This document shows, piece after piece, positions 1-63,659 of a DNA stretch of 64,000 bases (its first letter is position 1; each line of letters begins with the position of its first letter). The stretch is from Yuukianura sp. NJ FZ-2021 (taxonomy: Eukaryota), in the NCBI GenBank assembly GCA_046563655.1, contig CM102290.1, forward strand, positions 14,012,001 to 14,076,000, read 5' to 3'. The position numbers and the translations under genes were made by a program. The notes beneath the pieces are model-generated. The model did no database searches, was not told the origin of the DNA, and was given only the letters and a program-made list of their open reading frames with translations.

Positions 1-1425
1 TCTCTAAACTTCCCCAACTTTTTTTTTTTAGTACGGCGACACTTGAGTCAGACAGTCGAAAACCATTTGTCAACATTGTCAACTAAATTGTGGGATAAAA
101 CGAGAGATAATGTGGGCAAATCAGTTGATATACTAAGATGACTAAAGTTTTAGCAATTGACATCATGGTTACAGGTATACTTCATGCACACATCCATCAC
201 CATAAGTTAAAATCCACTTCATAAATTACTTGCATTTTGTCATGTCCAACCTTCAATTAACTCTAAGTTTTATGACAAACACATAAATGTCACCCGAGGT
301 CACCACAAACTCAACTTTTATAAGCTACACACAAAACTTCCGTAGATTCTGCTCTTGACCTTTCATTTTTTGTTCAAAAATTTTTGTCTCGTGCAAATCT
401 TGTTCAAAAAACTGTTTTTGTGAACAAATGTGGCTTATGAGAAAAATGTGTGCTGCACAAAGGACAATAGACACAACATGGAGATGCGTGCACAGTATCA
501 CGCATGAGCAATAAACTACAAAATCCCTAGATTCTTAGAATTAGTGAGGCGTTTCACTGGAAAATCCTCTAAAAGTCTTGAAAGACAAGAGAAGATGTAA
601 AGTCGGTCGTTTTTATACAAATGCAGTGCAAACATTTTTGCAAAAATCAATTTGCATCAATTCTGCAAACTTTTTTTCTGGTTTGTGAATTTCCCTAATC
701 ACTGTCTTAGTCACAACTAAAACTACAGAAACTATGAGAATAAAAATTTTGAAAACAAAAATACTGTTGTAGAATTCACGTCATGATTCGTTCATTGTCA
801 TTGTCACTTTGTAAAACCTGCTAGCAATTGAAAAAACTATGCGTTGCTTCAATGCAATGCTTGAGCTTAGGATTGGGTAAATCAAAACCAAGAGAAAAAT
901 AAGAATTTGAGTTTCAAAATTTCAATTTCTGTTGCAAATATTAAGTAAAATGCAAATTCATTGTAAGAGATGAAATGCTCGGCAAATTGAAAAATCTTGT
1001 GAATTGTGAGGTTAAAAGTTATTATGTGCTTTTGAAGATGTAAAAATGCTGTTTTGTGTGAGTGAGCTAGGACGCCATGACAGTTTTCTTGGAAGGAAAA
1101 GGAGCCTTGGTCCAGTCAGAGGCAGATAAGCAGCGGAAAGGGAAGGACGCTTCCAGTGTCACTTTCCCAAGACAAAGTCAGAGGTCAAGGTCACACTGGA
1201 GGTCAAGGTCACATCGCAACCAGTAAGTGTACATTCAGCACCAATTACCTGGACAGCACCTCAGCCTTGGACGCTTCATTGTCAGGGTCAGCATATAGGT
1301 AAAAGAAATACGAAACCTATTTTGTGCTGAATGTAGAGGTATAACTTGCTACGAAAACTATGAACGAAGAATCATAACGCTTGCTTTGTTTTGTTTAGGT
1401 TCTAAAAGAACCTGGTTGAGACAAA

Positions 1426-2475
1426 ATGGCTGACAAAAGGTCAGAGGTCACCGGAACTGGAAACAAGTATGAATGCGACCAATGTCACAAAAAGTTCAAA
1501 TCTTCCAAGACTCTGTCCAGCCACTTTGCTGTTCATTCTGACGTTCGACCGTTTGGTTGCTCCGAATGCCACAAACGATTCAAACGCAGTCAGGATTTGA
1601 AGAGACACATCGCTATGCACACAGGGGAAAGACCATTCCACTGCACAAGGTGCACAAAAACATTCATCCAGAACAGCGCCCTTACAATTCACATGCGAGG
1701 GCACACGTACGAGGGATTGGTTGAATGCAGCCACTGCAAAAACAAATTCAAATCAAATGGAGAACTCAAACAACACCTCATCATACACACAAAAGTAAGC
1801 AAATACACATGCACAATCTGCAACTATGCTGCAGCATCACAAGGGAATTTGGATAACCATGTTGCAACACACACAAATGAACGTCGTTTCCAATGTACGG
1901 AGTGCCACAAGAGATTCACGGAAGAGGGCCATCTGAAAAGACACCAAAGGATCCACGCTGGAGACAAGCGATTCCAGTGTAACTTCTGCACTTATGCAGC
2001 CATACACAAGCACACACTTGAAGTCCACATGCGACAACACACACGAGAGAAACCATACGCATGTGTGTTGTGCACCGCCACATTCAAGTCACACAGTGCT
2101 TTGAAGTACCACATTGGAATGCACACTGGAGAGAAACCATACCCATGCAAGGAATGTGGCAAGGAATTCAGAACTTCCACTATTTTGAAGTATCATGTGA
2201 AGATGCATGCGGGAGTGAAGGATTTCGAGTGCACAGTGTGCCACAACAAGTTCAGACAGCAATCAACACTCACTGCTCATGCGCGTGTCCATTCCGGAGA
2301 GAAGCCATTTGCATGTAAGTTCTGTGACAAACCATTTACACAGAGGACTCATTTGACCTGCCACCTTCGCATCCACTTGAATGAGAAGCCGTTTAGCTGT
2401 GGGAGTTGCCAGGCAGAGTTCAGATACAAACGCAATTTGCTGCGTCACCGGGAAGAATGCGTCGTCGATGAGTAG
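1426..2475 (+). CDS. Tandem C2H2 zinc-finger protein, paralog ZF-A (12 fingers, last one C2HC; no recognisable effector domain)
   Basis: 349-aa ORF of back-to-back CxxC-x12-HxxxH units with TGEKP-like linkers after a 14-aa leader (MADKRSEVTGTGNK). Probable 5'UTR intron at 1299-1398 (GTAAAA...TTTAG). An in-frame TGA lies 9 nt upstream of the ATG. Confidence 0.92.
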   Translation: MADKRSEVTGTGNKYECDQCHKKFKSSKTLSSHFAVHSDVRPFGCSECHKRFKRSQDLKRHIAMHTGERPFHCTRCTKTFIQNSALTIHMRGHTYEGLVECSHCKNKFKSNGELKQHLIIHTKVSKYTCTICNYAAASQGNLDNHVATHTNERRFQCTECHKRFTEEGHLKRHQRIHAGDKRFQCNFCTYAAIHKHTLEVHMRQHTREKPYACVLCTATFKSHSALKYHIGMHTGEKPYPCKECGKEFRTSTILKYHVKMHAGVKDFECTVCHNKFRQQSTLTAHARVHSGEKPFACKFCDKPFTQRTHLTCHLRIHLNEKPFSCGSCQAEFRYKRNLLRHREECVVDE

Positions 2476-5400
2476 TTCTCGCCACTCTACGCAAGATGCC
2501 GCACTTTTTTCTAATTTAATTTGTAGCGTTTCCAGTAATCTGATTTCCATCAATTGACAGGTTAAGTTTACACGTAGTGAAAAATTTTAAGTTTGGACAG
2601 TTAACTTTAATTCTACACCCTGTTCTGTACAAGAACAAAAACTACGAGTTAATTCTTGCCTCATTTTTGTTGTTTTTTTTTACTTTTCGTTTTTCTTTAG
2701 TTAGAAAAAATTTCAGTTGATCAGTAGTTTATAGTTTACGTTATTTTGAATAATTGCCATTTGTAATCCAAAAGTTTGTTTGTCTGCTGTATAAAGAAAT
2801 ACAAACAACAGAATCAACAAAGTTTACAGGTGTTTTGCATTTTTTAGTTTTTCTTCTTTTTCAAAATTTTCACGGTTTACAACACAACAACTTTTCATTT
2901 TCCAAGTTTTCAACAAATTGCAAATTACTCATTTTCTTCAACTTTGAATGCCTTCAGCATGTTTCAGCTGTGTTATTCCACTTTTAGTTAACATAAGTTG
3001 CAACTTAAATTGACTTTTTACAACATGTTTAACTAACTGTTCCTAATTGCACTGAAGTTAAAATTTACTAAATCACACATTCAGTAGTTATTAATGTCGG
3101 CATTTCATGTTTTGCGCAGCTTCAAAGTGAGTTCTGCGCATGCAAACCTTTGCTGTTCTACAGTTTGTAGCGTGGTGCATGTGTTATTTTCAAACGCCGA
3201 GTTAATCATGCATTTCACACTTCCGCTCCCAATTCTTTTTTAATTTGTTTGACAATGGCTTCTGATTAGTAGTTGTCACTCTCCAGCACATAATAGCTTC
3301 TCTAATGAAAATGATCAACTCTGGTTCACTTAACACAACTTTTGACATTTGACCTTTGACCTTTGGAGAAGCTAAACGGCAGCATCAGGAGTTTCTACAT
3401 GTGAATTTTCTTGTTTTTTGTTGAAACAAGACTGGAATGTTTTTGTAGAAGTTGTGCGAAAGGAGTTTTTGGAAATTAATTGACATGCAAATAATTGTGA
3501 AATGAAGACAACTACCTTACTGTGTACTGTCTTTGACTATTAATTGAGAGAATTTTATGAATCTCCTTGACCTTGCATGATTCCTAGCTTCACAAGAGTG
3601 AGCAGTGATTCAAGGTAAGCCACTTCAACAGAATTCTACTTCATCCGCATACACTGTAAACTCAGGTTTTTAGTATAACATAACATAACCTCGAATGTAT
3701 AAAATATAACTAAAGTGATGTACACCATGTGCACACACATTGTACATTGAACAAAAGTGTTCAGTTCATCTTCTGTCTGTTTTTGAGCCGAAAAAGAAAA
3801 ATCTGACACTGATTTGCACACCTCGTTCCGTCGGCATTGATCTTTCATCAATACTAAAGAAAACGTACTGTATGGTGTGTATATGTCTGTCCGTCTGTCT
3901 GTCTATTTCTTTCTAATTGTACTTTTTGTGCATGCGGCCGTTTCTCCAATTACAAAACAATTTTATAATTTTTTTAAATTTCTTTAATAAAATGGAGCGT
4001 TTAAGGTTTGGTATTGTTGACCACGTCTTTGCAGAATTTTTTTGGAATTGCTTGCATTAGATTTGAAATTTGATAATTATGTAAATAGTTCATTTTTATT
4101 TGGAGTTTTTGATTTTTTTTTTTTGCGTTTTTTTCGTGTAATTTTTTTTAGAATTCGAATTACAATGCGTGATTTGGTGGATGATTTGACGCTTGGCTAC
4201 TTGAGTATGATGGATTTTGAAAGTTAAAGCTTGGCTGATGATCAAGGGAAAGGGAAAGCCCATGTGATAATAAACTTTTTTTTAGACAAGACAAAGTTCA
4301 TGTTTTTTCTAAACAGGATTTCCTGTTTAGAAAATATCAAAAAACAAGGAAAAATTATGTAGGAGCAGACACTCTGCTACTTTTTGATAAATCCAACACT
4401 TAACTTTTTACTAACTTTACTACTGCCCTAATCCTCACAAGTTAGTGAAAACTGGAGAGACTAAACACATCAACTTGTTGTGATTTGGAAAAGTTTTGGT
4501 TTCTTTTTAGAAAAATTTCAACTGTTTCCTCTTCCTGCGAGTGCGTCTCAAGATTAGACCAACTGTGAAACACGTTTCGTTAAAAAAAAGTTTAGTTTCA
4601 AAATAGTTTCAAATTTTTGTCAGGTTTTGGTTTATTTCAAAACCCAAACGTTAAAAAATGTAAAACCTCAATAGTGCGGTAAAAAATTGAGATGAAGGAA
4701 ATAATTTTTAAAAAAGCGAAATGTTTAAAATTGAGGCTGTGAAATATTTACGCTTTCCTTGACAAATTTATCGTCTCTAAATCTGTATTCGTTGAATTTC
4801 AAAACAAAATTTCAAAAAATTGAACACCGAAAAGAAAGATTTTGAAAGAATTAAAAATAGCGCCAGTTCAGTTTGTCAGTTTGCCAGTAAATCGATTAGG
4901 CACCGAATTTATATTGAAAAGAAGCGTAACGTAAAAAACGAGATACAAAAACGTTACGGTTGCGACTACTTAACACATTCCGTACGTGTCGGTGTTACAG
5001 TTACAACGTTAGGTTGGTTATACCTAATCAAGAGTAGTTAAAGTACATAAAAATTAGAAAAATTGGAGTGTTAAAAGTTAGGTTGAAGATGTGTCAGTTA
5101 TGTATATGTCTACGGTTTAAAAAAAAAGAGTTTTGTGGTTTCAGTTCATGGCCAGTTTGTGTTTCCGCTCGAGCAGCGATTTCCTTTGTTCTCAAAATCA
5201 GCGCCATTTCTCACTACTTTTTCAAATTTTCCCTAACAACCTATTTTGTTCAAAAAAGTGAACTTTTAAGTTTCAACTTTAACTGTTTAACTTGTTTTTA
5301 TAGTTGCTTTAATCATATACACTCATGCTGTAAGAAAATTGGACCACACTATGGCGAAATTTGTTGCGCTGTTGAAGTTGTATGATTGAAAACTATATTT

Positions 5401-10604: not shown

Positions 10605-10814
10605 GACTATGAAAACAGGCGCTTATACTTGAAAACACTGAATAATACCTGAAAACAATAAAACAAAGTAGAATAACACTGAATTCAGTTAAAAAAACAC
10701 CCAAGTGTTAGATTTGAAAACAGTTGAAAACTTTGCATATTAGTACAGGATATCTAGCAATACGTTGTAATGAAGACAGTTAAAATAGAAGTCAAAACTA
10801 CTTTTGAAAACACA

Positions 10815-13251: not shown

Positions 13252-16200
13252 TCACTTGTCTTCTTTGAGCTGCTGCTGACTTCCCGACTGTTTCCTTACA
13301 CTTCCGTCGCTGTCGTCCATGTACACTTTGACGAGATGTACTGGATTGTACTGTCCAGCGGACATCATTTGATTCACTTGTTGTTGCTGAATCTTCCAGC
13401 GCTTTCTCATTCGGGCTTCCTTCGGACTGTAGTAGTAGTCGGGGTACTTTTTCTTATGATCGTCATTCGCTTGACGAGAAGCAGCAAAGTATTCTTCCTG
13501 AAAACAAAAAACCAAAAATTTCAAAAATCTCATTCTAAAATTCCATATTTTCAAAATTTCGAATCCATTCTCAGCTCACCTTCTGTTGACTGGCCAAGTT
13601 CTTCCACATGATGCCTAAGCGAACACTGATCTCCTTGTTACTTTCGTTAGAGAACTGCACGGCCAACTTCCGTCTCCACTCGTTTGCAAAGATCATGAAG
13701 GCGTTTGGTGGTCTCGGGATCTTCTCTTTCGGTTCCACAGTTGCACCTCCTGCTGCTGCATATCCAGACATCTTCATCAGTGAGTACTTACTCACAATTT
13801 CTACATTTTGCCCAACCCCATCAACACAAATTACAATCAACAATTACCTAAATTCATCAACAAAAAAACACCCACTCAAATCCAAAAGTTAGTTCAACAC
13901 ACAAACAGCTCAACAAAATCAAAACAGTTTCAAAATTTTCTCCACAATTTCTCTATACCATCTAAAAAAAACTTTTTAAAAAAAAGTTAGTTCCACGCTC
14001 TCTATTAATCTCTACTTGAAAAATTCGAGAAATTGAATAAACCTGTTGTCGCATTTGCAGAAATTTTGAAAAGCAAAAACTATTCACCCAAAAACGAAAA
14101 AACTAAAACAAAAAAGCCCAAACCACCAAGAAAAAAGAGACAGAAGACTTTGTGACAAGGTTGTTTAGGTTAGGTTAGTTAGGAAAAACAGTTTTTAGAC
14201 ACACGTTAGGGGAAGGGGGGAAGAACCAAACCTTGGAAGAGAATGAAAGAGCTACTGACCTTTGACATCCTGATGCCCGTCGCTAGTTTCCTATAACAAA
14301 GTGACAGAAGCAAAAGAAGAAAGAAGAAATTAGTGCCCGAGTGTGGTTTCAAGAGTCAAAAAATCCTTGACACAGCAAAACTACAAATCCCACTAACCAC
14401 TTTTTGAAAAAAAAACTAGCCACTACAATGAAAATTTTCAAAATCTAAAGAAACTACAAGAGTAAGAAAAAAAAGCAAAAGTGTGTGGAAGCGTTTTGAA
14501 TTTAGAAGCATTTTAAGACTTAAAAAAAACTAAACAAGGTCAGAGGTCAAGTTCGTTGGATCACCATTGGCCGTATGACGTTGCGTAAACGTTTTAAAAC
14601 ATGCGAAAACGTTAATGTATGTTTGTGAAGTGACGTTTGTGTGACACTGTGCTCCGCATTACGACCCTGGTGATCCAAGACGAGAAGATGGACTACAACG
14701 ATTAACTTTCGGTTGCAATTAATCGATTAATTGACTAATTAACTAAAACTTACAAAAGTGGAATCCTTCCCAACTCCATCCGAGTCATCTTCATCAATAT
14801 CCCGAATGTAAGGTGGATCAATTTTGATGGTCAACGGTAACTCGTCACTGTTCTCGTCATCAACTGACGTCGACACAGTTTCCACCGCTGGACTCCGTTT
14901 CCTCTTCGGCTTCGTTTCTCTGCACCGATTTTGATTTACCTTCATTTTTACAACAAAAAAAATGTTCAAAATTTGTAATTCCCAAAATTCAAAATTTGTA
15001 TTTCCCAAAACTTACATCTTTGTTCACAGAAGCTAGTTTTGCACGTTTTCGTCGAAGGTAGCTTGGAGTCTCTTCAATATCTGATGAGTTTCCACCCAAC
15101 TATAGTTCAAATTAGAGTTAAACTCAATTAGTCGATTACCCTGAGCTAACTAATGGATTTTAATTTACTTACTTGACTGTTGGCAGAAGTTAACGAAGAT
15201 GGCGTTCTTCTGGGAGAAGTGTTTAGTGGTAACACTGAGTTTGGTGAGGACACGTGATGTGGACTATTGGTCAAACTGCTATGGTTACTGTTCGTGTGAC
15301 TCCTCTCTGCGCATGCTCCGTCTCCCATTTTGCTATTAGACAGATCTGAGTTGGTGGATCCAAGTCCTTTGGTATCTGTACAGTTATCCAGGGACTTTTC
15401 TGGAGAGGAGGCAGTGGAGCACGAAGAATGAGAATTTTGGAGTTGTTGACCCGATGCAGGTCGTGTGGCACGAACATTAGACAGGCCCTTGACCTGCAGC
15501 CCTTCCGCCGTCGCCAGTAAACTCTCCAAATCACTTTCCGTGATCTGCAAATCAAAAGTACAAAAATAATTAGCATTAACTATAACATTCATTTTACTTA
15601 ACTTTAAGTAACACTGTAGACATAGTTGTACATTGTGTTCCAAAAGTAATTAACTTGTTGGAACACACTTCTTTTTTTCTTACATACTATGTAAGTCCTA
15701 ATCATTCCACAAAATATTCCAAAGTTAAGTCGGAACAGATCAGTGATTAATCTGGAGGAGATTAAGAGTTGCAGCAACAAAAATATTGAATGCTGCTAAT
15801 ACTTTTCGTCTGACGACGTAGACCTCAACAACGCAGACTTTCAAAAAGTCCAAACACTAAAGCCATCAACATCAACCTGTTCCTCCGTCCTGTCTCATGC
15901 GCAGTAGATTCTCAACTTGAGTATCGTCAACGTTTACATCTTGAGTTTAAGTTCTAATAGTGGGAGGACAGACAGACAGACAGACAAGGTCGAGGTATCA
16001 AGTAGCTTTCATTTAATAAGTTGAAGTGGACAGTACCTTCACTTCTCCTTTGTACATAAATTCCACTATTGCTCGAATATCTTCATATTTTACTCCGTTC
16101 ATGATGATCACAGGATGGGCAGCTTCGTGCTGGTCAAAAATATCCTACAACAGACAAACAAATATTTTGAAATATTGAAAAAAAGTCATTTGCAATTTTT

Positions 16201-22309: not shown

Positions 22310-22467
22310 ATTACTGTTTAGTTAATTAGTTTTTAGTTAATTGTGTTTAGTGAGCAAGTGACAATGCCTAACCCTTGATTCCTATTACGTTAATTAGTAA
22401 CCATCCATTCCAGTACTTAATTTGTGACAACAGAAACTGTGGCAGCTAAGTAATGTTAGAGGGCTTC

Positions 22468-49900: not shown

Positions 49901-52900
49901 ACGCGCCACGACGATCAGCTGATGCTCATTTTCTGGTGAATCTTGACGTCTAGTTGTCTTGTACGTCAACCGTCTCTTGGTAAATATTTCTCCACTGAGC
50001 GGGTCGATTGAAAAGTCAGACGGAGTTGTTAGGGCGTAAGTAACAGACGAATTGAGTCCAGCTTTGTCGCGGTCAGTCGCAATCAGCTGACCCACCAATG
50101 TAACATTTTCTCTGCTCTCTCCGATATTGAAACTGTAAAAACTCTGTTCAAATTCGGGTGCGTTGTCGTTCAAATCCTGAATTGTTATCGTCACTAACGT
50201 TTCGGCTCTCCAGGATCCATCAATTGCTCCAACACGAATCAAATACTCATCTTGTGTTTCACGGTCCAGAAGTCCACTTACGGTAATGTTGCCACTTATC
50301 GGCTCAATTTGAAACGGTACTCTCAAGTTCGGTTCGGTAAAAATATAGGTGCAGTTGGCGTTCGCTCCGATATCACGGTCAACACTTTTGACTTGAATGA
50401 CGAACGACCCAAGTGGTGAATTTTCAGTGACATTGACAGTGAAAAGGCGCGTAAATCTCGGTGGATTGTCATTTTTATCTCGAACTGTGATGAGTACCGA
50501 TGTCGTTCCGCTTAGCGGTGGCGAACCGCCGTCAACTGCTTCCACCGTAAGTTCATAGTGGTTGACCTCTTCTCGGTCAAGCTTGACCTTTGACACGATC
50601 TCACCCGAAGTTGAGCCAATTGCAAATAAGTGTCCATAGGTCGAGCTAGTTTCGGCACTGAACGAGTACGTAACTTCTCCTAGCTTATCGCTATCGGCAT
50701 CACTAGCTGTGACGGAGCCAATCACCTTTGGCCCCGCCTCCTCCTCCATAACGGACAACTCGTAGCGGCTTTTTTCAAAAACTGGTTCATTGTCATTTTC
50801 GTCTGTGACGGTAACGTGGAGTCTTATAGCGGTGACCAAAGGTTGTTGACCTTTGACCTCGCTGCGACCCAGAATCCAAAGGTCAAAGACCTGAACAGCT
50901 TCATAGTCTAAACCGAGTGGAGAGATCTTGAGCCAGCCCGATTTGGCTCCAATTTCAAAACTGTTGCCAATATTTCCGCCTCCAATGGAGTACGACACAG
51001 GTTCAGATTTTGGCGCCTCGATTTGAATCACTTGTAAATTCTTGGTGTTTTCTTTGAAAGTGAACGTATTCTGCTTGACCGAAATCTGAGGAAAGTTGTG
51101 TGCAGAGGCAAGTGAGATGCGGAGAGTGATGACTGACGCAGTGGGATCCACCACGAGGGGGTCATTTCCATTGATTTCGACCAAAAATAGGCCATTTGAG
51201 GACGGATTGCTGCGGAGTGTGCGTAGAGTTGTCACGACGCCAGTATCTTGGTTGATGCTGAACTTGTCTGCGTCTGGACCACTCAGAAAGTAGCGTCGTC
51301 CAAGGCCAAACAGCATGTCGTCAGCTGACAGGCCAAAAACAAACGTGTCACGTCCACTTCCTTCGGGAATTGTGATTGAGTATTCATTGGCACCTAAAAC
51401 CAAGTATTCAGAAAATTCAAAATTTCAAATTTCAAAAAAAAAAAAGGGTTTTTAAAAAAAAAATTCCATACCTTTGAATCCCTTGAAAATGTGCATTTCC
51501 GTTTGCAAATTGTTAATACGCAGTGTAACGTTGACTTTTGAAGACAGCGGATTGGCTGGATTGGAGTCACGTGCTTCTGCTACCAAGCGAAAAGTGTGAG
51601 CATGCGTCGGAATTTCTTGGTTGACCTTGATGTCTCCCGTGACCTCGTCAATTACAAATGGACTGTCACCGAGTAAAAAGTACCTGAAAAACAACCAAAA
51701 AGTTCAAAATCTGAAAAATGTTAATTTTTTCGAAGTTTTTTGAAGTCATGAAATTTCAACTTACTTCACTTGACCATTCAGTCCTTCGTCAGCATCGGTT
51801 GCTAGGAGACGGGAAATGTTTGTCCCCGGCCGAGAGTTTCCTTGGACCGGAAACTCGTACCGTCTTCGCTCAAAAACCGGAGCGTTGTCGTTCGAATCCA
51901 CAACATTTACTCGAACCGTTCCAGTTCCAGTGAGTCTAGGGGAACCTTTAGCACAAGTACAAAAAAAATTCTAAGTTTTTTGAAAATTTTTGAATTTTTT
52001 TTCAGAATTTACCAGCATCAATAGCTACAACTGTGAGGAGATACTCTGCCTGGACCTCCCGATCCAGCTTCCGATGTACCGTGATTTCTCCACTCGTAGA
52101 ATCAATACGGAAAGTTCCTTTGTCACCGTCTTTGATGAGGTACCGGATCTGCTGGTTCGGATTCGGATCGGCATCGAATGCCGTCAAGCGCACGACTGGT
52201 ACCGGTAAAGTTTCGATATTTTCACGCACTTGGGCAATATACGGTGAGTCCAGAAATACTGGCGGATTGTCATTTGTATTCGTGACGGAGATGAGAACAG
52301 TTGCTGTATCATATTTCGGCTGGAAATGGGATAAAAAATTGCAAATTTCTAAAAATTTGAAAATTTGGAAATTGAAATTTACCTCCATTCCAAAATCTTC
52401 GGCGCGAATAGTCAATGTATAAGTTTTGATTCGTTCGTAGTTTAGAGTTCTGGAGAGCCGGATGACGCCAGTATCTTCGTCAATGACAAAATCACGATTT
52501 CCATCTCCCGCCACAATTGAAAACCGAATTTGTCCGTTGAGGCCTTCGTCGATATCTGTAGCTGACACCTATTTGAAAAGAAGAAGCGGGAAAAGTTATG
52601 TCAAAGGTCACGAGGTCAATGACCTTTGATTTGCACTTACCTCAAGAATGTTCATGCCAAGTGAAGAGTTTTCTGGAATGGAGGCAGCGTATTGGCGGGA
52701 ATCGAAGGTCGGTGCGTTATCGTTTTCGTCTTCAACTGTAACCAGAAGGTTCTGCGTCGTTGACCTCTGGGGGTCACCTTTGTCTTTGGCCGTAATCTAC
52801 AAAAGGTCAATGACATTTTAAAAAAATGTTGAGAGAAAAATGTCCGCGGAAAAATGTAAAAAAAAAAAACGTCGAGGGAGAAATATCCATGGAGAAAATG

Positions 52901-55900
52901 TTGAGGGAAAAATATCCCGGGAAAAAATGTCGAAGACAAAACGTTCAGGGAAAAATGTTGAGGGGGGAAAATGTTGAGGGGAAAATCTCCAGGGAAAAAA
53001 TGCCGGGACAAATATGTCGTGGACAAAAACTAAATTGTAGAGATCATTGAGTTCTGTGGTTACGTACCTGTAGGATGTAGTTTGACCTGGTTTCGCGATC
53101 AATGACCCCGTGGACCCTAAGAAGGCCATCTACTGGCCCTAAGCTGAAAGTCGTCTTCTCATTGGCTAACACATATTCGACGTAACCGTTCCGACCATCA
53201 TCCCTGTCCAGTGCATTGACTACTAGAACGAGGGTGTTTATGTGCGGATTCTCCGTCACGGTAGTTTTGTTTGGTGAAATAAAAATTGGTGCCTCATCAT
53301 TTACGTCTCGCAACAAAATTGAAACCTAAACGAAAAAAGAAATTTTCAGAATTTTGAAGTTAAAAGTTGAAATTTTTGAAAAAAAGATGAATAACGTACT
53401 TGGGCAGTAGCTGATTGAGCCTCGGGTGATCCACGATCAGTAGCAACAACTACGAGGTTGTACGATGAAATCGTTTCACGATCCAAACCGGTTTTGGATG
53501 AAATTGTTCCGTTTTGAAAAATTTCAAAATTTCCAGCCTCGTTGCCACTTTGGATTGAGTATTCTATTTGGCCATTGAGACCTACCAAGGAAAATTTCAC
53601 AAATTACATAAAATAAAATTTCAAAAACTTTGAAATTTTGAATTTACCTGAATCCAAGTCTGTAGCACTGACAGTGACAATTGTTGATCCAACTGAAACG
53701 TTTTCATAAACTTCCCTCGTGTAGCTCATTGGGTCAAACACTGGCGCGTTGTCATTCAAATCCAAAATATTTATGTACACTGTTGCCGTCGATGACAAAC
53801 TTGGAACACCGCTGTCTTGAGCTTGCACCACAAAAACATAATGTTGAACCTAAAAAATTTCAAAATATGATAATTTTCAAAAATTTTAAAATACTGTAAG
53901 ATAATTAGCAAAAATTTAAAAATTGAAAGTCAGCAAGGTAAAATGCCGGAAATAAATTTGGCAACATCGCAAAAAGTCTAAACCGGGAAACTTGGCAACA
54001 TCGCAAAAATTGAAACAGAAAAAGTTAGCAACATCCCAAACAGTAAAACAGAAAAAGTTGGCAACATCGCAAAACGTAAAACCCGAAAAAGTTGGCAACG
54101 TCGTCATTTTTTTTAAACTTACGTTTTCGTAATCTACACGATTGATGAGTGTAAAGACTCCAGTGTCTGGACTTAGCGTAAAAACGTCATTGCCCCACCG
54201 TGACACAACTGAGAAGGTCACGACCCCGTTGAGGTCAGTGTCAGGGTCAATGACCTCCAGTTTTCCCACAGACATTCCAAGCTCAGCGTCTTCCGGAATT
54301 TCAAAAGAGTAGACTCCATTGTTTGAAAAAGTTGGCAGGTTGTCATTTTCATCCAAGACCTGGATTCAAAAATTTTTCAAAAGCTTTCTTTAAAAATTTC
54401 AAAAAGTTTAGAAGTTACCTTAATGTAGAGTTTCATCACTGAATGCTGGATTCCATCTGAAGCGTTTATGTGTACCAAGAAATTGTCGATTTCTTCTCTG
54501 TCGAGTGGTTCCGCCAGGCGGAGGATGCCCGTTTCCGGGTCAATCCGAAAACTCCCGCTTTTTTCTCCATAAATTGAATATGTAACGTTTCCAATCAAAT
54601 CGTCATCTGTTGCTGTAACTGTTATAATTTCATAATCCACTGGCGCGCTTTCTGAAACACTCAATTCCTTTTTCATTTCTTTGAATTTTGGCGGGGAATC
54701 GTTTCTATCTAACACTTCAATGTCGACCTGTACAACAGAATTTAAAATTTTGAAAAGTTGTGAACATAATTTTGTATTTAAAATTCCAATTTCAGTTTAT
54801 GTTACTTACTTGGACCATTGCAGTTTTGAGTCCTTGAGCAGAAATTAAAATTGCATAAACTTCGACTCGGAGATTTGAACCGACGGCTTCTCTGTCCAGC
54901 ACTTTTGTAGTGTAAATTGTTCCCCGTCTGGCATCAATTTCAAAAAGTCGTTCCTTTTTCGCGCCATTTTTGAATCCCGTTACATCCGTTATGTAGTATT
55001 CAATTCCACTTGCTTCTGCCCCTTTATCTTCTGAGACTGCGCAGTTAACATGCAGAATTGGTGTACCGATAGGCTCATTTTCAAAAATGGATCCGCTGTA
55101 TCCCGATTGGCTAAAAGTTAAGCCAATCCCGTTGGAGCTTTCTGACTCTACGCCAATCAGAGTCAGCTCCAGATCAGCTGACTTTCTCTGAGACTGAATG
55201 GCTTCGTCAGTTGCTTTTATGGTCAGCTGATACCTCGGCTGGAAGTTTGTGATTGGTTGACGGAGGCTGAGTTTACCTGAAGTCCGGTCCAATAGGAACA
55301 GAGTTTGGTCGCCATTGACAATTTCAAACGTTACAACTCCATTTGACTCGGCATCGGGATCGGTCGCCTCTATTCGGATAATTTCGGTATCAACTGTAGT
55401 CGTTTTGCGTAAAATGGCGGCATTCATGCACGTAAACTTGGGTTCGTTATCGTTCAAATCTTCTACAATTATAGTCACTAGTTTAACAGCTGATAGGCGC
55501 TGATTGGTTGGAATAGCTTGGTCCGAGGCGCGAATTGTCAATTTAAAAGTGTCACTAAACTCACGGTCAATGTCACGAGTCGTAAAGATTCGGCCAAGTT
55601 CGGGATCTATACCAAAGTGACTTCTGATTGGTCCTCCGCCTCCTATCTCATTTTCTATTGGCTCTTGCTCAACTATAGAGTAGCGAACTTTTCCATTGAG
55701 ACCCGAATCGGCATCTTCGGCCGACACAAAAACGATTGTGGTGTTAATCGGAGTTCCTTCTGGAATTTGTCTAAAAATTGCCGTGGCGGGAAAAACGGGC
55801 GGATTGTCATTGAAATCCAAAACGTCCACTAGAAATTGAACAGTCGTTGCCAAACTTGGATTTCCGAGGTCACTCGCCGTGATGTTCAAAATGTAGGAAC

Positions 55901-58900
55901 TCTGTTTTTCAAAATCCAGTGGTTTGTTTAAATAGAAGGAACCCGTTTTTGAATCAATGAAGAACGTGTCATGTTTGTTTCCGCCAGAAATACTGAGAGT
56001 TACGTGTGAATTCAGTCCTTGATCCGGATCGGTCGCCCGGAATTGCATCAACTCCTGGCCAACTCTGGTCGTTTCCAAAATCCGGATTGACGGTTCACTT
56101 TGTGTAAATTCCGGTGCGTTGTCATTCTCATCAAGCACTTGAACCGTTACTGTTGTTGACGAAGTTAGTGACCGCGACTGGGCCATATCACGAGCATAGA
56201 CTTCCAGGACATAGGTGGGTTCGGATTCACGGTCAAGGTGCTTGGCCACGGTGATTTGGCCCGAGGCGGAGTCAATCCTGAAGTGCTTGACGTCTTCTGG
56301 AAAATAGTACAGCACAAGGCCGTTGACACCGTCATCAGAATCTGTCGCATGGACACGTATGACGGATGACCCCAACGCAGCTCTTTCGGACACTTGCGTA
56401 ACGTATCCCCCCTTCTTAACAAATTCCGGACGATTGTCGTTCTCATCTTTGACGTAAATTTGAATTTGGGCGCTATCGGATTTTGACGGATGACCGCCGT
56501 CAGTCACTAGAACGTCAAGCGTCAAGTAATTTTTGCCTGTCACGCGGATCAGCTGTTCGCGGTCAAAAACCGTCAAACTGCGAACAAATCCCGTCCGGCT
56601 CTCGATTTTAAAGTTTTTATCGTCCCCGGCAAACCGGTAACTCAGTTCAGCGTTTCTTCCAGCATCGAGGTCAACTGCCGTGACCTTTCCAACAAAACTG
56701 TCAACCTCTTCGTTTTCGGTGATACTAAAAGTGAACGTAGAATTTGAAAACTTTGGGGCATTGTCGTTTTCGTCACTGACATGCACTATGACCTGGACAG
56801 CTGATGACCTTGGAGGTGTCCCACTATCTTGTCCAATGATTATCAGAGTATAGTAGTCTTGGTCTTCACGGTCCAGTGCTTCTTTGACATAAAGATTCCC
56901 GTCCGGTAAGATTCCGAACTTGGGTTTCCCGGTTCCGTCCGAAATGGAGTAGGTCACGTGAGAGTTTAATCCGCAATCTAAGTCTTTTGCTTTCAAAGTA
57001 AAAAAGCGGGAATTTAAAGGAGCGGATTCGAGGAGCGAAGTTTCAAAATTGGATTGTCCGAAAACGGGAGTGAAATTGTTGACATCCAGAACTCTGACAA
57101 TGATTTCCTGAACGGCAGAGAGTTTCGGAGAGCCGGAATCTTGCGCAGTCACTTCAAGCACAAAACGTTGGTTACACTTGGACACAGTGCGGTCAATAAG
57201 TATTTTCTGGAGGGTCACGTGACCCGTCCGCGGGTCAATTCTGAACGTTTTTCCCGGGTTTTTTGAAAGACTAAAAGTTATAGTACTATTTTCACCAAAA
57301 TCCAAATCAAAAGCGTCAACGACTGTCACTTCACTTCCGATCGCTGCGTCTTCGTAAATTGACACTTCGTAGAAATTCGGAGTTTTGAAAATCGGTTTAT
57401 TGTCGTTGACATCTTGGACTTGAATGAAGACCTGCCAAGATTCAAATTCCATTTTCGTTTCCCGCCAAACCACAACTGATAAGTTAATGTTCGGAGTTGC
57501 TTCACGGTCAATCGGTTTGTCTGCAAATAGAGTCCCTTCTGGGTCAATCCGAAACGTACCGCTCGGGTCACCGTCGGAAATAACGTACGTCACGCCGGGA
57601 GCGGGATTTTCAAAGACCCGCCCAATTTTTCGGGAATCCCGCCCAGTTTTTCCCGGATCTTCAACCACAACAAACCGAATGACCTTGACCTCACTTTTGT
57701 CTTCAAGGTCATTGACCCCAAATACATGCACTGTCACTTTTTCACTTGACCTGCGACCTCCTCCGTCCGTCACATGACCTGACCACGTCACATAATTTTT
57801 CCTGATAGATCCAAAATTTTGTTTGAGTTTGACCTGCCCCGAGGCGGAAATTTCAAAATAGTTCTTATCGTCAGTTCCAAAGGTCAATTCAGCATTTTGA
57901 CCTTCATCATCATCAGATGCTGTGAGGTTACAAATAGGAGTTCCGGCGGGACTGGATTTCAAAATTTTGACAAACCGGGTCACGGGGTACACGACTGGGT
58001 CATTGTCATTTTCATCTCGAATGGTCAAGGTCACGGTAGCGGTTGATGACAACGGTGGAGAGCCTTTGTCTTTTGCGATGACTTGAATTGTATAGCTACT
58101 GCGCAACTCTCTGTCAAAACTGACCCGGGCAACCAATTGACCCGAATTGGGGTCAAGGTGAAAGTGACCTGGATGAAGAGTTTCAACTTCGCGGGTTAAA
58201 AAGTACGACACTGACCCGTTTGTACCTTGGTCATGATCCAGAGCCTTTAGTGTTGCTACGAGTGACCCACCAGGGCCATTTTCTGGCAGCGAGACGTTGA
58301 TTACCGAATTTTCAAATTTTGGAGCTTCGTCGTTTTCGTCTAAAATTGTAATTTTGATTTCGGAAAAAGTCCAACGTGGATTCGGACCGCCATCGCGAGC
58401 AGAGATGCGCAGACGCACGACGTCTTGGGTTTCACGGTCCAGTTGGGATTTGGTTGTAAGTAGACCGGTCATTGGATCGATGCTGAACCAATCACGATCG
58501 TTCCCTGAAGTTATTGCGTAGTACAACTGCGCATTGATGCCAGTATCAGCATCATGGGCAATGATGCTGGCAACAAACGAACCAATCGGAATCAACTCAC
58601 GCAGTGTTGCGGCGTACTCTGTTTGTTCGAAAATGGGATCGTGATCGTTCACATCTGGAATTTTAAAAAAATGGAATTTTAGAAACTTTTTTTGAAATTT
58701 GACCTCTTGATCCAAGGTTCGTAAACAACCAAAAAAAATTGTGTTAGGTTAGGTTGTCGAATAAGTCGATGGTTTTCGTCTTGTTAAAAAATTTGAAAAA
58801 CTTTTTTCTTATGGTAATTATTTTCATAAAAAGCAATTGGAATTGGGAAAAAAAATATTTGAAGCAAAACTTTTGCAAAACCCCGAGTTATTGGACAACC

Positions 58901-60768
58901 TGTTGCAGGAAATATAATACGGTTGTCAAGGGACCTTGTGTTGACCTCAGATTTTGCTTGGTTGACCTTACCGTTGACCTCGATGAGCAGAAAAGCCACG
59001 GTGGTACGTGGGCGTGAGCTGGACGACTTGTCAGTGGCCATGATACTCAAATTGTACTTGCCAATTTTTTCACGGTCCAGCACACCGTTGACACGAATGA
59101 GCTGGAAGAACGGTGAAGACTCGAGACGGAAGTGACCAAGGTCATTGCCAGACACAATTTCAACTGTCATTTCACCTTCCAGACCTAAATTTTTCAAAAT
59201 TTTGAAGAAATTTCAAAATCAAGAAATTTAGTTCCATGTGTTCCGCTTATTTTTCCTATCAAAAACGCCGAGAACACAAATATTCACAGCGAGTATCACG
59301 CTACCCGACGCGAATTTAGATTTATCACTAAAACCTTGATTTTTTCCAACTTCAATTCAAAATTCTTGCAAGTTTTAAAGAAAAAAAAATCAAAATTTGA
59401 AATTTTCTTTTGTTCTCTTTCTCATTTTTGCCAAAAACGTCACAAACACTAAAATTCACGTCGCGTGTCACATGACGCGACGTGAATTTAGATTTATCAC
59501 TATAACTTTAATTGCTTTCAGCTTCAATTTAAAATTCTATAAAGTTTTTTTTTTAATTCAAAATTTTAAATTTTCTTACGATCATTTTGATCCAACGTCG
59601 AAACAGCAGCAACAACGGATCCATTTTGAGCATTTTCGTCAACCGACGCAGCTTTGGCAGTATCCGGAAAATATTTAAACGTGATGACCGGGTCACGGTC
59701 GTTCGTCGCTAGGAGATTTACGGTAACGTAGGTTCTGCCGTCCTGTGGTGGCAGGCCATGATCTCGTGCAAATACCGTAAAGACACAACTTTTGGGACAA
59801 CTCTGTTGTTTCTGTGGACAGTTTTGTTGACAATTCAGAAGCGACTGGGCCGTGAAAATGTCGCCCGTGAGTGGGTCAACGCTGAACTGACCTTCACTGT
59901 CTGCTAAATAGTAAGTCACTTTGGCGTTGTCACCTTCGTCACTGTCTGTAGCCATGACCTGGAGCACATGCGTACCAAATGGGACACTTTCGTTGAGTGA
60001 CACGACGTAGTCCGAGTGGTCAAAGATTGGTGGATTGTCATTTGTGTCACTGATGGACACGTCCAAAATTGTCCAGCCGAGTCTTGGTGGGACACCGTTG
60101 TCCTGCGCCGTGACATTCAGGACATAGTTGGACCGTGATTCACGGTCCAACTTTCCGGTCGTCTCAAGGTACAGGAACGGTGCAACCCCGGCGGGGTTCG
60201 GGGTCACGCCGAGTGCAAAGTGACCTTCATCATTTCCATCTACAATGACATAGTTCGTCGTCACGCCGTTGGGGTCGCTGTCCGGATCCTCCGCGGTGTC
60301 CAGGAACATGCGCGTTCCGGGAGTCGAACTCTCCGAAAACGTCAGTTCGACTCGTTTTTCCGGAAAAACCGGAGCGTGGTCGTTGAGGTCACGAACTTTG
60401 ATTCGGATTTCGATGGGATATGTTGGTTGGCTAGACAGGATGACGAGGTCAAATGTGTCAGACGACAGCGTTTCACGGTCAATCACCGCCGCGGTGGTCA
60501 CCTCTCCGGTCGTATCGTTGATCCGAAACAGCGGTACGACTTCGTTAAACCGGTAAGTGAACCCAGGTCGTGTCGGAATCCGCCCGACTAAAGTTCCCGC
60601 TTCAACTTCTTCTTGAATTTCAAATTCAAATCGGAGGTCACCACTTGGAGTTGACCCTTGACCTTTAAAAACGGCGCCAAATTTGGACGGACTTTTTGGG
60701 GGTCCTTGACCTCTGGCGAGATTTGAACCGACGAACACAAGGAAAACGAAAATCCACAACGCTGTCAT
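40922..60768 (-). CDS. ft: Fat atypical cadherin (Drosophila fat / vertebrate FAT4 type), about 4,960 aa
   Basis: 18 exons in phase: 60768-59580, 59184-58972, 58654-54810, 54727-54419, 54359-54123, 53849-53648, 53581-53400, 53325-53068, 52796-52641, 52568-52383, 52319-52013, 51945-51765, 51683-51472, 51393-48271, 45645-43818, 43748-43217, 42942-42660, 42567-40922 (14,889 nt). Signal peptide, a long array of cadherin repeats (LDRE, DxNDNxP), EGF repeats, two laminin-G domains, a TM helix, the cytoplasmic motif YDLENASSIAPSDIDIVYHYKGYR and C-terminal EEYV*. Confidence 0.95.
43151..43208. mobile_element. End of a short dispersed (MITE-like) repeat, copy in fat intron 16
   Basis: gagttattggacaacctgt...ggaaata...cggttgtcaagg.accttg matches 58881-58938. 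The tail ttgtcaaggaaccttg also occurs at about 34235. Confidence 0.6.
46397..47446 (+). CDS. C2H2 zinc-finger paralog ZF-E (12 fingers), nested antisense in fat intron 14
   Basis: 349-aa ORF collinear with ZF-A, lying inside intron 45646-48270 of fat. Probable 5'UTR intron at 46275-46372. The 3' flank (about 47545-47905) is the reverse complement of the trio's 3' flank. Confidence 0.92.
   Translation: MEGQRSEVTGTGNKYECDQCHKKFKTSKTLSIHFAVHSDVRPFGCSECTKRFKCNHHLKRHIALHTGERPFQCTRCTKTFIQKSDLTRHMKGHTYEGLVECSHCKDKFKSNAELKSHLIIHTKVSKFTCTICNYAAQSQRRLDDHVATHTNERRFQCTECHKRFTTESNLKMHLRIHAGDKRFQCNFCTYAAIEKNTLDIHTRQHTRERPFVCVLCTATFKSHSALKYHVRTHTGDKPHRCKECGKEFSSSTILKNHVKMHAGVKEFECTVCHKKFTHEWNLTVHARVHSGEKPFACKFCDKTFAQRGNLTSHLRIHLNEKLFRCGSCEAEFRYKRNFLRHREKCCVDA
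52820..53030. repeat. Degenerate purine-rich minisatellite (GGAAAAAATGT..) in fat intron 8
   Basis: Repeated ggaaaaatgt / gagggaaaa units. Confidence 0.75.
53955..54105. repeat. About 33-bp tandem repeat, about 4.5 copies, in fat intron 5
   Basis: aaagttggcaacatcgcaaaa...aaac recurs five times. Confidence 0.85.
58713..58938. mobile_element. MITE-like element in fat intron 2
   Basis: The ends caaggttcgtaaacaacc and ggttgtcaagggaccttg form an imperfect inverted repeat. The right part is homologous to 43151-43208. Confidence 0.55.
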
Positions 60769-61818
60769 CTTTGAGATCAAAATTGGCACTTTTCGAATTG
60801 GCAAAATCAAGAGTTTTTAGAAATTTTGAAAATTTCTAAATCTTTTTGCACTTCACTTTTAGCTCCTCACTCCAGGTCTAACGACCATCGTGACCTCTTG
60901 ACCTCACGCTCAAAATTTTCAAAAACTTTTGACTCATTTTCAAAAAAAAAGTCAGGAACACATTGGGAGTGGAATGCAAAGGCACTTGACACTTGGCAAA
61001 AACTGTTTTATGAAACTACATGTTTCTGAGGCACTTTTTGAATTTTTTAAAGTTAATAAAATGAAGAGGGTGCCCTTATTTGGAGGTTGAGAAGACTTAA
61101 GGGCCCCTTGCTGTGCTTGTGCAGCATTTCCGTGGTGTTTGTGCTCCCGGCAGAGGAAAAAAGTGTTTGAAGTGAGTGGATGGTTGGTGCTATTTTTTGG
61201 TCAACCATTGCCCAAGGGCCTCTTCTTCTTTTTCTTCTTCTTTCCGCAGGTAGACGTGCATTTCTCAAGGGTGCGGCAACAATATAAGGCGCACCTCTCA
61301 GGGTACGGCACTAAAAGCAGCAGCATCTCACAGTTTGTGACAAATTTCAAAAAAAAACTAAAACATTCGTGGAAAAAATATTGTTTTGGTAGTGAAGCTA
61401 TTTATGCCGTAAATTATTTGTGATCGGAATATTACGGTAATACAATTCATATAATTTTTTTGCCGAAATATTGTACATATATGTCTGTGTAAACTAAATT
61501 TTGTGTTGGTTCTGATTTTCATTTCGAAAATTTCAGTGGAGCATGTACTGTGTAGGGGTTGTTTGTCCAAAAATTTTCAAGTTCAAAAAATATTTGACAT
61601 TTGAAAAGGCGCCGTTGTGAGTAACATTTGTGGTACATTGGAGTGAGGTATGTTTTGCTTTTGAAGATTTTGATTTTGAATCTCAAGAGAAGAGAGCAAC
61701 AATAGGTTCAAAACTGCTCCTTTTTCTTTCAGCTCTCCGAAGGTATGCTCAGTACCAAAATCGGCAGTTGTGTTACCATGCACAAATTTGGGACACACAA
61801 AATTTTCAAACATTTTTT

Positions 61819-62235
61819 GTCACAACATAGCCACAACATAGCCACAACATAGCCACAACATAGGCACAACATAGCCACAACATAGGCAGAACATAGGCAC
61901 AACATAGTCACAACATAGCCACAACATAGGCAGAACATAGACACAACATAGTAACAACATAGTCACAACATAGTCACAACATAGCCACAACATAGGCGAA
62001 CATAGACACAACATAGTAACAACATAGTCACAACATAGCCACAACATAGGCAGAACATAGACACAACATAGTCACAACATAGCCACAACATAGGCAGAAC
62101 ATAGACACAACATAGTAACAACATAGTCACAACATAGCCACAACATAGGCAGAACATAGACACAACATAGGCAGAACATAGACACAACATAGTAACAACA
62201 TAGGCAGAACATAGTCGCAACATAGTCACAACATT
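61819..62235. repeat. 11-bp minisatellite AACATAG-nnnn, about 37 copies, with higher-order organisation
   Basis: Invariant aacatag followed by variable tetramers tcac/ccac/gcag/acac/taac/gcac. Confidence 0.97.
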
Positions 62236-63659
62236 CGTGTATATATATTAATAGTAAAACATATATCACAGTTGTGAAATGAAAGTATCAAGTATTACAA
62301 CATCAATAAGGTAATTTGCCGTAAAGTTCTAAGTAAGTAAGCTCTAAGTAAAAAGGTTATTAAATTCGTAACATCTTTGTGAACCACCTCTTTTTCTCAC
62401 TTCCTCGCGGAGTTTACGGATTGGCCAACTTGAATGTGTTATAATATATTAAATTCAAATATTTTGTATTTATTTATTTATTTATTTTATATTATATCAT
62501 TTCCTAGGCCTCAACTTGTGCCTGTGTGCCGTAACTGCCTGTGTAGAGGAATGGGAACCCATGAACCCTGGGTAAGGCCGTCTCACCTGTCAAGAATGAA
62601 ATACTCCCTGCCCTTCCCTTCCTCTCATTGAAGAAGTTTGTGTTCAACTCCAACCCACGGCAAACTCCAAACAATTCAAAACTACCCTCCTTTAATAACT
62701 TCTCCTTCCAAAATAAATTAATTCCAACGCTTAACATGGGGAACACTCATTTCAAATTCCCAGGAAAAAAGACTCCAGCAGAGATCACCATCAACTTCTC
62801 AGTTCTCAGCCTCACAAAAACATATTCTCATTAACACAAAAACTAAATTTTCCAATTTGGGAAGAAAACATTTCATATCCTCTCAAAATTCTCATTTTTT
62901 TCTTTACTCCAAACAACTCTTCCAATTATTTCGATATAATTACTTTTATTTTAACTTTTTTTTTTGTTGATACCAAATACATTTGTCATTACTCGAGAAA
63001 TTCGGATGCAGAACAGTCAAAACTCAACCTCAACTTTGAATAACTTTTGAAAAAAAGGAGTACGTGAACTTTTTTTGGTACTTTCACAACTTTTTTTTTT
63101 ATTAATTAGAATTACTTTAAGTTTTTGGTAAACAAGTCTCATATTCTAGGCTTTTTTAATGTTTTAGGAATATAAAAAGTAACCGCCGCTGATTTGATGT
63201 TTCTGAGTAATTACTTAATTAATTGCATAATTACCTAAGTAGTTAAGTGTAATTCAGTGTAATTCCACTTTCATGTCGATAAGGTGTACCACGGCGTGGG
63301 GTAATTGTTGGGATTTTACGGTACTCTTGAAATTTTGTCTCACACGGTGGAGGCGGGAAACCGCGAAATTTGAATTTGAAAATAATCATAACATAGCAGA
63401 AAAATTGAAAAAATAATGGAAATGTTAAAATCGGTTTCCAGTTCTCAGTGCTTCCAGTGTTTTGTACTAAAAAGTAATTCGTTTTTAGGTACTTTCGCGC
63501 TCGTTTGGAGAGGTCAAAGGTCAGAGGTACGGTTAACATTGTCGTTTTGTTGAGCTAATTAACCAATTAACGATTTACATTCACTGGCTTTTGTGTCTTG
63601 TTCGAAACATAGGTTTTTGGATATGACTTCTATCGTTTCCAATCTTGACGGCCTTGATC

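Follow-up and report, generated by a model that had tools for sequence, protein, structure and literature searches.

Why is AGGTCA, the textbook half-site of nuclear receptors, written so often through one stretch of springtail DNA? The stretch comprises 64,000 nucleotides of Yuukianura sp. NJ FZ-2021 (assembly GCA_046563655.1, contig CM102290.1, positions 14,012,001 to 14,076,000 of the forward strand), hereafter the window, and it holds the giant cadherin gene fat together with five paralogous cassettes of a C2H2 zinc-finger (ZF) family, ZF1 to ZF5. We find AGGTCA/TGACCT to be the window's top hexamer by the ratio of observed to expected counts, with 172 sites (79 on the plus and 93 on the minus strand) against 26.9, 29.7 and 63.6 expected in 64 kb under backgrounds of order 0, 1 and 3, respectively. 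Tandem copies separated by a single base (AGGTCA-N-AGGTCA, the direct repeat DR1) occur 19 times, and not once in 100 dinucleotide-preserving shuffles. A first-pass annotation had pointed to an extreme, window-wide excess of DR1. Every perfect copy that it listed is present, on both strands (Table 1; those within composite entries start at 22118, 35489 and 46402/46409), and four more (37371, 37593 and 39415 on the minus strand, 46189 on the plus strand) complete the count. Its chance expectation of about 0.01 copies was right (0.0076 for uniform composition, 0.0057 based on the actual composition), and "window-wide" is a fair label, as the word occurs in fat introns and in spacers as well as in fat exons (4.6 per kb). 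The direct repeats without a spacer (DR0) that it had mentioned are there as well, in six perfect copies, along with seven palindromes with a one-base spacer (inverted repeats, IR1).

Some of these sites are copies by descent. Self-blastn and an alignment of the paralogs assign 8 of the 19 DR1 to the ZF cassettes: those at 1438, 35252, 37371, 39415 and 46409 occupy a homologous position at the start of the coding sequence (..KRSEVTG..) in all five paralogs, and those at 35489, 37593 and 46189 do so in the 5′ exon. With four of the five cassettes masked, 55.8 kb of sequence remain, holding 134 copies of AGGTCA and 11 independent DR1. On this paralog-masked sequence we ran 40 Markov simulations each for orders 1, 3 and 5, which yielded a mean of 0.00, 0.05 and 0.20 DR1 (maximum 2). 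The order-5 sequences reproduced the hexamer count itself (133.6±11.9), yet contained only 0.20 DR1 and 0.15 IR1, compared to 11 and 4 observed. Codon usage fares no better as a source of the excess. The fat coding segments, 14.3 kb taken from tblastn alignments along with some short pieces of intron (11 of 4776 codons are stops), carry 66 hits, as opposed to 14.0±3.4 after shuffling of synonymous codons (maximum 24 in 1000 shuffles) and 7.3±2.6 after shuffling of codon order. Nor does a single transposon underlie the sites: the only repeats that self-blastn detects are the ZF cassettes and local tandem arrays, and flanks of 60 bp around the 11 independent DR1 have 18 8-mers in common, compared to 16.8±17.2 for random sites, in line with the earlier remark that the sites lack shared flanks. 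Within the window, the excess thus outlasts the higher-order Markov background, the codon background and the search for one transposon family.

The sites obey a grammar. Across the whole window, pairs are most frequent as DR1 (19), IR1 (7) and DR0 (6); every other spacing up to 40 bp occurs five times at most, everted repeats with spacers of 0–2 bp (ER0–2) and inverted repeats with spacers of 2–3 bp (IR2–3) are absent, and the expectation per spacing is 0.23 for direct and 0.11 for inverted or everted pairs. Paralog masking leaves 11 DR1, 4 IR1 and 3 DR0. In all 19 DR1 the spacer is a purine (10 times A, 9 times G), never C or T, and the centre of IR1 is A or T in six of seven, yielding AGGTCAATGACCT. 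Flanks show preferences of their own: Y at −3, A or C at −2, A or G at −1 (115 of 134 sites) and A at +1. Solitary sites, defined by the lack of a partner within 20 bp, make up 64 of the 134 and have similar flanks, with A or G at −1 in 50 of 64. Among the 18 hexamers that differ from AGGTCA by one base, only GGGTCA (2.3x) and ACGTCA (1.75x) stand out as enriched; two others, AGGTCC and AGGTCT, drop to 0.4x of expectation, and the remainder lie at 0.6–1.5x. Where one half of a DR1 or IR1 is imperfect (18 pairs), the change falls at half-site positions 1–2 in 14 cases (GGGTCA 7, ATGTCA 5, TGGTCA 1, AAGTCA 1) and at positions 3–6 in 4 (binomial P = 1.4e-4). With its bias in position, this variation resembles the information profile that a binding protein would impose and is unlike even decay. 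The pair geometries match those of nuclear-receptor dimers: DR1 is bound by RXR/USP, HNF4 and COUP-TF/Seven-up (Svp), and IR1 by EcR-USP, for which AGGTCAATGACCT is the idealised "PAL1"; DR0 is the site of GCNF/HR4, and extended monomer sites are those of FTZ-F1/ERR/NR4A.

What does this density do to a protein? The word could be encoded synonymously in 148 peptide contexts of Fat, and 53 of these (36%) carry AGGTCA, compared to 12.8 expected from the gene's codon usage. Such motif-compatible contexts are themselves in surplus, at 35.7 per 1000 residues versus 19.6±2.0 (range 15.1–23.1) in 24 orthologs. The resulting ratio of 1.83 is higher than that of all 179 control words of the same composition, the runner-up being the overlapping AAGGTC (1.57). 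Motif codons show lower identity to 14 arthropod orthologs than the rest of the protein (0.305 versus 0.456; Mann-Whitney P = 1.2e-5), and the amino-acid-matched difference of −0.117 is reached by none of 2000 permutations. Consequently, the word either sits in tolerant protein positions or has displaced ancestral residues there. The peptides that exonic DR1 had been said to shape can be read off directly: ADKRSEVTG in ZF1 and, in Fat, VRQKVKGHP (42219), VTGQRSRK (49619) and SEVKGQQ (50847).

The two strands of the fat coding sequence are affected alike, with 39 sense hits versus 7.5 expected and 27 antisense hits versus 6.5 (synonymous shuffles), and AGGTCA uses all frames that are compatible with an open reading frame. 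A word that truly stems from a protein motif behaves differently: TCACGGTC, the complement of the cadherin LDRE codons, has 14 copies within fat on one strand but a single one in reverse complement. Enrichment on both strands, set against this one-stranded example, argues that the pressure acts on double-stranded DNA. The first-pass annotation had likened the repeats to a chromatin or structural code laid over genes, unlike ordinary enhancers. Its DNA-level overlay on coding sequence stands, at 4.6 hits per kb of fat coding sequence; the chromatin or structural role does not follow from it. A non-adaptive drive or a micro-repeat process would give a similar picture.

Once present, are the copies kept? 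In the alignment of the five ZF cassettes, the 66 motif columns deviate from the consensus in 16 of 311 cells (0.051), compared to 1008 of 8065 (0.125) elsewhere (block permutation, 0.0036). Noncoding deviation is 0.018 in motifs versus 0.143 outside them for the 5′ exon and intron, and 0.021 versus 0.170 for the 3′ flank, so that noncoding motif copies are ~7x better conserved among the paralogs than their flanks. Perfect DR1 pairs (11) are about as numerous as pairs with one mismatch (13). The ZF paralogs also offer a glimpse of how a copy may be born: at 46402, ZF5 reads AAGGTC where the four other paralogs read CTGACA. These five differences in six bases preserve length and frame, supply a third in-phase AGGTCA unit and make the protein start as MEGQRSEVTG instead of MADKRSEVTG (46397–46421 versus 1429–1450). 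A templated event seems a likelier origin of this change than five point mutations.

Any explanation of these observations needs a sequence-specific agent, and no known mechanism explains the AGGTCA excess. We tentatively favour a reading in which AGGTCA is a DNA-level word that is read by nuclear-receptor-type DNA-binding domains and actively maintained, and in which the sites are not ordinary enhancers. To our knowledge, only proteins with receptor-type specificity favour AGGTCA in combination with these pair geometries, and it is for this reason that we favour a receptor-type reader. The reader, its binding and the effect thereof we infer from the pattern of sites. The word would be lineage-specific and act on double-stranded DNA, with USP/RXR-, HNF4-, Svp- or FTZ-F1-type receptors as candidate readers, or else receptor-like proteins that combine several DNA-binding domains but lack a ligand domain. 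New copies would arise from point changes as well as from small templated or duplicative events with a period of 6–7 bp, and weak, pervasive pressure, be it selection for occupancy or a binding-linked repair bias, would keep them. This pressure would have to be sufficient to steer synonymous codons and poorly constrained amino acids. Taken together, the sites might offer proteins a dense platform of low specificity that covers genes and spacers alike, a chromatin-level layer and not thousands of hormone-response enhancers. Among the genes recognised in the 64-kb window, none encodes a receptor.

A bolder version of this reading, which we regard as decidedly improbable, would have AGGTCA serve as a genome-wide "self word". 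Selection or motif-directed repair would keep the word, written in DR1/IR1/DR0 grammar through genes, exons included, because it is coated by receptor-like proteins that are lineage-specific, have multiple DNA-binding domains and lack a ligand domain; this coating would license or organise chromatin, and mobile elements would copy the word into their terminal repeats to pass as self. If true, this would be a eukaryotic counterpart of the bacterial uptake signal sequence (USS) or of HIP1, and would put the DNA-binding domain of nuclear receptors to a new use that needs no hormone.

Several observations weigh against a maintained, receptor-read word. The main arguments against selected function are the even spread of the sites and their sheer density in coding sequence. 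When sites within 30 bp were merged (107 clusters), paralogs masked and clusters counted per 4 kb, the counts were consistent with a uniform 3.5-fold excess (chi-square 21.1, 14 df, P = 0.098), and function is no better a match for such evenness than a mutational or repair process acting across the genome. It is difficult to see how selection for binding could account for 4.6 sites per kb in the midst of conserved coding sequence. The conservation test covers a small sample, 11 motif blocks in one gene family, and in the coding part of the ZF cassettes motif columns show no better conservation than others (0.087 versus 0.097). Arrays of one, two and three units fall off about geometrically in number, as the birth of micro-repeats predicts. 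Lastly, the variants are not quite those of a receptor: ATGTCA, the second commonest imperfect partner (5 of 18), is no classical receptor variant that we know of, and AGTTCA, which receptors tolerate, is not enriched (0.81x).

Evenness also speaks for the most serious rival, a non-adaptive motif drive, which we consider doubtful but well worth weighing. Here, a sequence-specific process would convert near-cognate sequence to AGGTCA and restore damaged copies, to no benefit of the host; biased mismatch repair, gene conversion, or a nickase or transposase-derived protein recognising the word could each be the agent. Such a process would be an animal parallel to the very-short-patch repair that inflates CCWGG in E. 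coli. An excess that runs through coding sequence, fat introns and spacers with no significant regional heterogeneity would be expected of such a process, as would codon usage being overridden and amino acids being changed mainly where the protein is weakly constrained. The depletion of the neighbours AGGTCC and AGGTCT and the templated-looking block of five substitutions at 46402 fit in as well, and the conservation among ZF paralogs is equally expected if copies are repaired back. However, we know of no motif-specific repair bias of this kind in animals. Moreover, a mismatch-repair bias predicts a loss of transition neighbours, yet AGGTCC and AGGTCT, the two that are depleted, differ from the word by a transversion at position 6, and the preference for DR1, IR1 and DR0 is left unexplained unless the driving protein binds as a dimer.

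Alternatively, AGGTCA(N) may be a neutral micro-repeat family, a 6–7-bp unit amplified by replication slippage or templated repair that decays without any reader or maintenance. Tandem Repeats Finder (TRF) reports arrays of 2.1–4.3 units with a period of 6–7 at ten places (3341, 19900, 22114, 35483, 37371, 37587, 39415, 42219, 46187 and 46401), degenerate extra units adjoin the DR1 at 3350 and 63511, and other short arrays in the window (GTAATTAC at 8457–9362 and an 11-mer satellite at 61819–62234) indicate that duplication of short units is active here. Nevertheless, we judge this account unlikely, if still a serious rival. Close to half of the sites (64 of 134) are solitary and share the same flank preferences, and slippage cannot produce the seven IR1 palindromes. 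Insertions of 6 or 7 bp would disrupt coding sequence (with 7 bp causing a frameshift), yet fat stays open with 66 sites in all frames. A decaying family should surround itself with variants, but one-off hexamers are not generally enriched and thus form no decay halo; the changes in imperfect partners are spread unevenly over the six positions, and noncoding ZF copies are far better conserved than their flanks.

Could the word act in RNA, as a splicing enhancer, an intron filler or a translation signal? One fat intron starts with GTAAGGTCA (58963), another of ~80 bp has three sites, and both the arrays in the ZF 5′ untranslated region (UTR) and the DR1 at the coding start are sense-oriented in all five paralogs. 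We nonetheless think an RNA-level role very improbable: in fat the enrichment of antisense copies is close to that of sense copies, which leaves no restriction to the sense strand, the palindromic IR1 is favoured, most fat introns have no site while the exons measure 1–4 kb, and sites also lie outside the recognised gene models. Least credible of all, and largely refuted within the window, is an origin in one transposon or family of miniature inverted-repeat transposable elements (MITEs), or in an artefact of composition or codon usage, for although duplicated ZF cassettes hold 8 of the 19 DR1 and motif count correlates with GC content (Spearman 0.65), no repeat underlies the 11 independent DR1, their flanks share 8-mers at random level, the high-copy intronic repeat at 43003–43208 holds no site, order-5 Markov sequences and synonymous shuffles fall short of the DR1 and fat counts, respectively, and a contig from run X5, from another study and under another organism label, is identical over 48097–48398 including the sites at 48321 and 48353, so that the word is not an artefact of one assembly.

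How are the sites distributed in finer detail? In 2-kb bins, AGGTCA ranges from 0 to 12x expectation. We dropped the idea of locus-specific targeting: heterogeneity at the 4-kb scale is not significant, and the fraction of compatible contexts realised in fat (53 of 148) does not differ significantly from that in the other genes (5 of 26; Fisher P = 0.12). A link to germline methylation was not apparent either, as the observed/expected ratio of CpG is uncorrelated with motif count in the window (Spearman −0.03). This ratio is 0.55–0.68 in the ZF cassettes (1–4000, 34001–40000 and 46001–48000) and 1.0–1.2 in fat (42001–60000), both of which are equally AGGTCA-rich, and suggests germline methylation of the ZF cluster, not of fat. 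Inspecting the sites for the 330-bp periodicity of cadherin repeats gave no clear signal. In a comparison of the window with runs X1 and X5 over 40001–60000, the 40 best-supported of 937 differences include 15 outside the ZF cassette (14 at 40843–45431 and one at 54710), of which none falls in a motif where ~0.4 would be expected, a comparison that is uninformative on constraint and on length polymorphism. Metagenome contigs yielded a single locus related to fat, which at 31% identity is too distant for orthologous sites to be compared.

Table 1. AGGTCA arrangements and principal genes of the window (positions within the 64,000 nucleotides; a dot, no strand given).
Feature	Position	Strand	Remarks
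DR1	1438..1450	+	ZF1 coding-sequence start (KRSEVT)
DR1	3350..3362	-	within a 3.6-unit 7-mer micro-array (3341-3365)
DR1	14537..14549	+	noncoding
DR1	19901..19913	+	noncoding
TGACCT and DR1	22108..22130	+	TGACCT, then 4 bases on a DR1
DR1	26445..26457	+	noncoding
DR1	35252..35264	-	ZF2 coding-sequence start (paralog of 1438)
DR1 + DR0 triple	35483..35501	-	ZF2 5′ exon
DR1	37371..37383	-	ZF3 coding-sequence start
DR1 + DR0 triple	37587..37605	-	ZF3 5′ exon
DR1	39415..39427	-	ZF4 coding-sequence start
DR1	40202..40214	+	~0.7 kb past the 3′ end of the fat coding sequence
DR1	42219..42231	-	fat coding sequence (KVKGH)
DR1 + DR0 triple	46189..46207	+	ZF5 5′ exon
Triple array, 7-bp period	46402..46421	+	ZF5 coding-sequence start
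DR1	49619..49631	-	fat coding sequence (GQRSR)
DR1	50847..50859	-	fat coding sequence (EVKGQ)
DR1	63511..63523	+	~2.7 kb upstream of the fat start; the third unit after it is degenerate (AGGTAC)
Two DR0 pairs	1182..1211	+	1182-1193 and 1200-1211; ZF1 5′ exon
DR0	57680..57691	-	fat coding sequence
IR1 palindrome	24707..24719	.	AGGTCAATGACCT
IR1 palindrome	36007..36019	.	3′ flank of ZF cassette; paralogs at 38395 and 47787, a degenerate one at 33853
IR1 palindrome	38395..38407	.	ZF cassette flank
IR1 palindrome	43738..43750	.	fat gene
IR1 (spacer G) + ER3 + IR0	45540..45567	.	within 28 bp of fat coding sequence (TKVMTLEVTDLDL)
IR1 palindrome	47787..47799	.	ZF cassette flank
DR2 + IR1	52605..52625	.	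filling the ~80-bp fat intron
fat (cadherin-related tumour suppressor), giant cadherin gene	40925..60771	-	Pfam and homology searches; complete; 66 motif hits in coding segments (39 sense, 27 antisense)
ZF1 cassette	854-2475	+	
ZF2, ZF3, ZF4 cassettes	between 33.7 and 39.8 kb	-	
ZF5 cassette	45.9-47.9 kb	+	5′ exon ~46100-46330; coding sequence 46397-47446
NADPH-cytochrome P450 reductase (CPR) gene	~27.9-32.6 kb	+	

Turning to the genes, fat spans ~20 kb, its introns being short (60–400 bp) apart from one of 2.6 kb, and its product is 47% identical to that of Tribolium. The five ZF cassettes were recognised by Pfam, homology searches and self-blastn; ZF5 is a complete plus-strand cassette nested inside the 2.6-kb intron (45676–48263) of the minus-strand fat. 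Contig depth in run X1 over the ZF cassette is 5–25x the single-copy level (1500–6500 versus ~250–300), and the family (46004–48004, 854–2475 and 33700–39800) probably has many further copies in other parts of the genome. The DR0 of the ZF1 5′ exon runs into GGTCACACTG (1188–1199), which we take to resemble the Drosophila core-promoter "Motif 1" (YGGTCACACTR); part of the ZF 5′-exon array may hence double as a core-promoter element. The best named relatives of CPR are those of Orchesella cincta (77%) and Allacma fusca (78%), and other transcripts reach 82–83%, which together with the identity of Fat to its Tribolium relative places the window in a springtail-like hexapod. Judging from their translations, further open reading frames may represent a trypsin-like protease, an HMG-box exon, BTB-type exons, a GST-like exon and a tetraspanin-like exon.

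Other repeats and words accompany AGGTCA. Two fat introns contain a repeat of ~130–200 bp (43003–43208 and 58796–58940, 79% alike) that is devoid of AGGTCA and has a contig depth of ~100x single-copy in X1, with many loose ends; this is probably a high-copy MITE-like element. The 11-bp satellite, GTCACAACATA, lies ~1 kb upstream of the fat start and consists of ~38 units with 85% matches. GTAATTAC, a second over-used word with a homeodomain-like TAATTA core, has 11 of its 13 copies within 0.9 kb (8457–9362), partly as 11- and 32-bp arrays that adjoin the trypsin-like protease exons, and the others at 40897 and 63207; TAATTA itself is 3.5x over expectation across the window (164 versus 46). The palindrome CTGCGCAG occurs at 9655, 11287, 17945, 41654, 45170 and 55037, six times versus ~0.2 expected under an order-2 model, and TCAGCTGA, with an E-box core, is found at nine places, seven of them in fat exons.

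Our literature search, with subscription journals outside its coverage, found no account of genome saturation by AGGTCA/TGACCT or of receptor expansions in Collembola. A paper on receptors with two DNA-binding domains (PMC10497141) makes no mention of Collembola, Folsomia, springtail or Hexapoda. At this locus, a textbook receptor site is the most over-used hexamer and visibly skews the sequence of Fat, a conserved protein of development. Should a protein read the word, this would be a new genome-scale role for receptor-type DNA-binding domains. If instead a drive is at work, it would be the first motif-specific mutational or repair bias of such strength in an animal, and analyses of codon usage, selection and enhancer prediction in springtails would be confounded. 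The data also serve as a warning that not every DR1 in this genome should be taken as a hormone-response element.

Compared to known systems, the sites most resemble nuclear-receptor response elements. They share the exact half-site, the DR1, IR1 and DR0 geometry in perfect copies with other spacings near background, the purine spacer of DR1 and the A/T spacer of IR1, GGGTCA as the main tolerated variant and the Y-M-R 5′ flank. Unlike such elements, which are sparse and confined to regulatory DNA, the sites described here are orders of magnitude denser (172 half-sites in 64 kb) and lie in coding exons on both strands, where they shape codons and amino acids. This is canonical response-element geometry at an unprecedented density and location. 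Factor sites spread by repeats, for example the DR2 and HNF4 sites of primate Alu elements or the CLAMP/GAGA-factor sites born from GA-repeat expansion on the Drosophila X, are likewise numerous, near-perfect, generated by copying and set in short arrays; in contrast to these, the present sites have no carrier element or shared flanks beyond the ZF cassettes, are solitary in about half of the cases and fall in open reading frames. Prokaryotes also over-represent certain words, among them Chi, USS/DUS, HIP1 in cyanobacteria, and CCWGG, which very-short-patch repair inflates in E. coli. In common with Chi, USS, HIP1 and CCWGG, AGGTCA is an exact short word far above Markov expectation, in coding sequence as well, by way of codon and amino-acid choice, and the likeness would extend to dependence on a sequence-specific protein. 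It shows no strand skew, unlike Chi and KOPS, and differs from all the prokaryotic words in forming dimer-like pairs and in belonging to an animal nuclear genome. As a rule, one would expect binding-site words outside regulatory DNA to be neutral or mildly avoided. One preprint describes a genome-wide depletion of such words through selection against ectopic binding, which it holds to be detrimental at non-functional sites (bioRxiv 10.1101/041145); the common ground with the present locus is that DNA-binding proteins may shape genome-wide k-mer statistics, here with the opposite sign and in the form of a strong enrichment.

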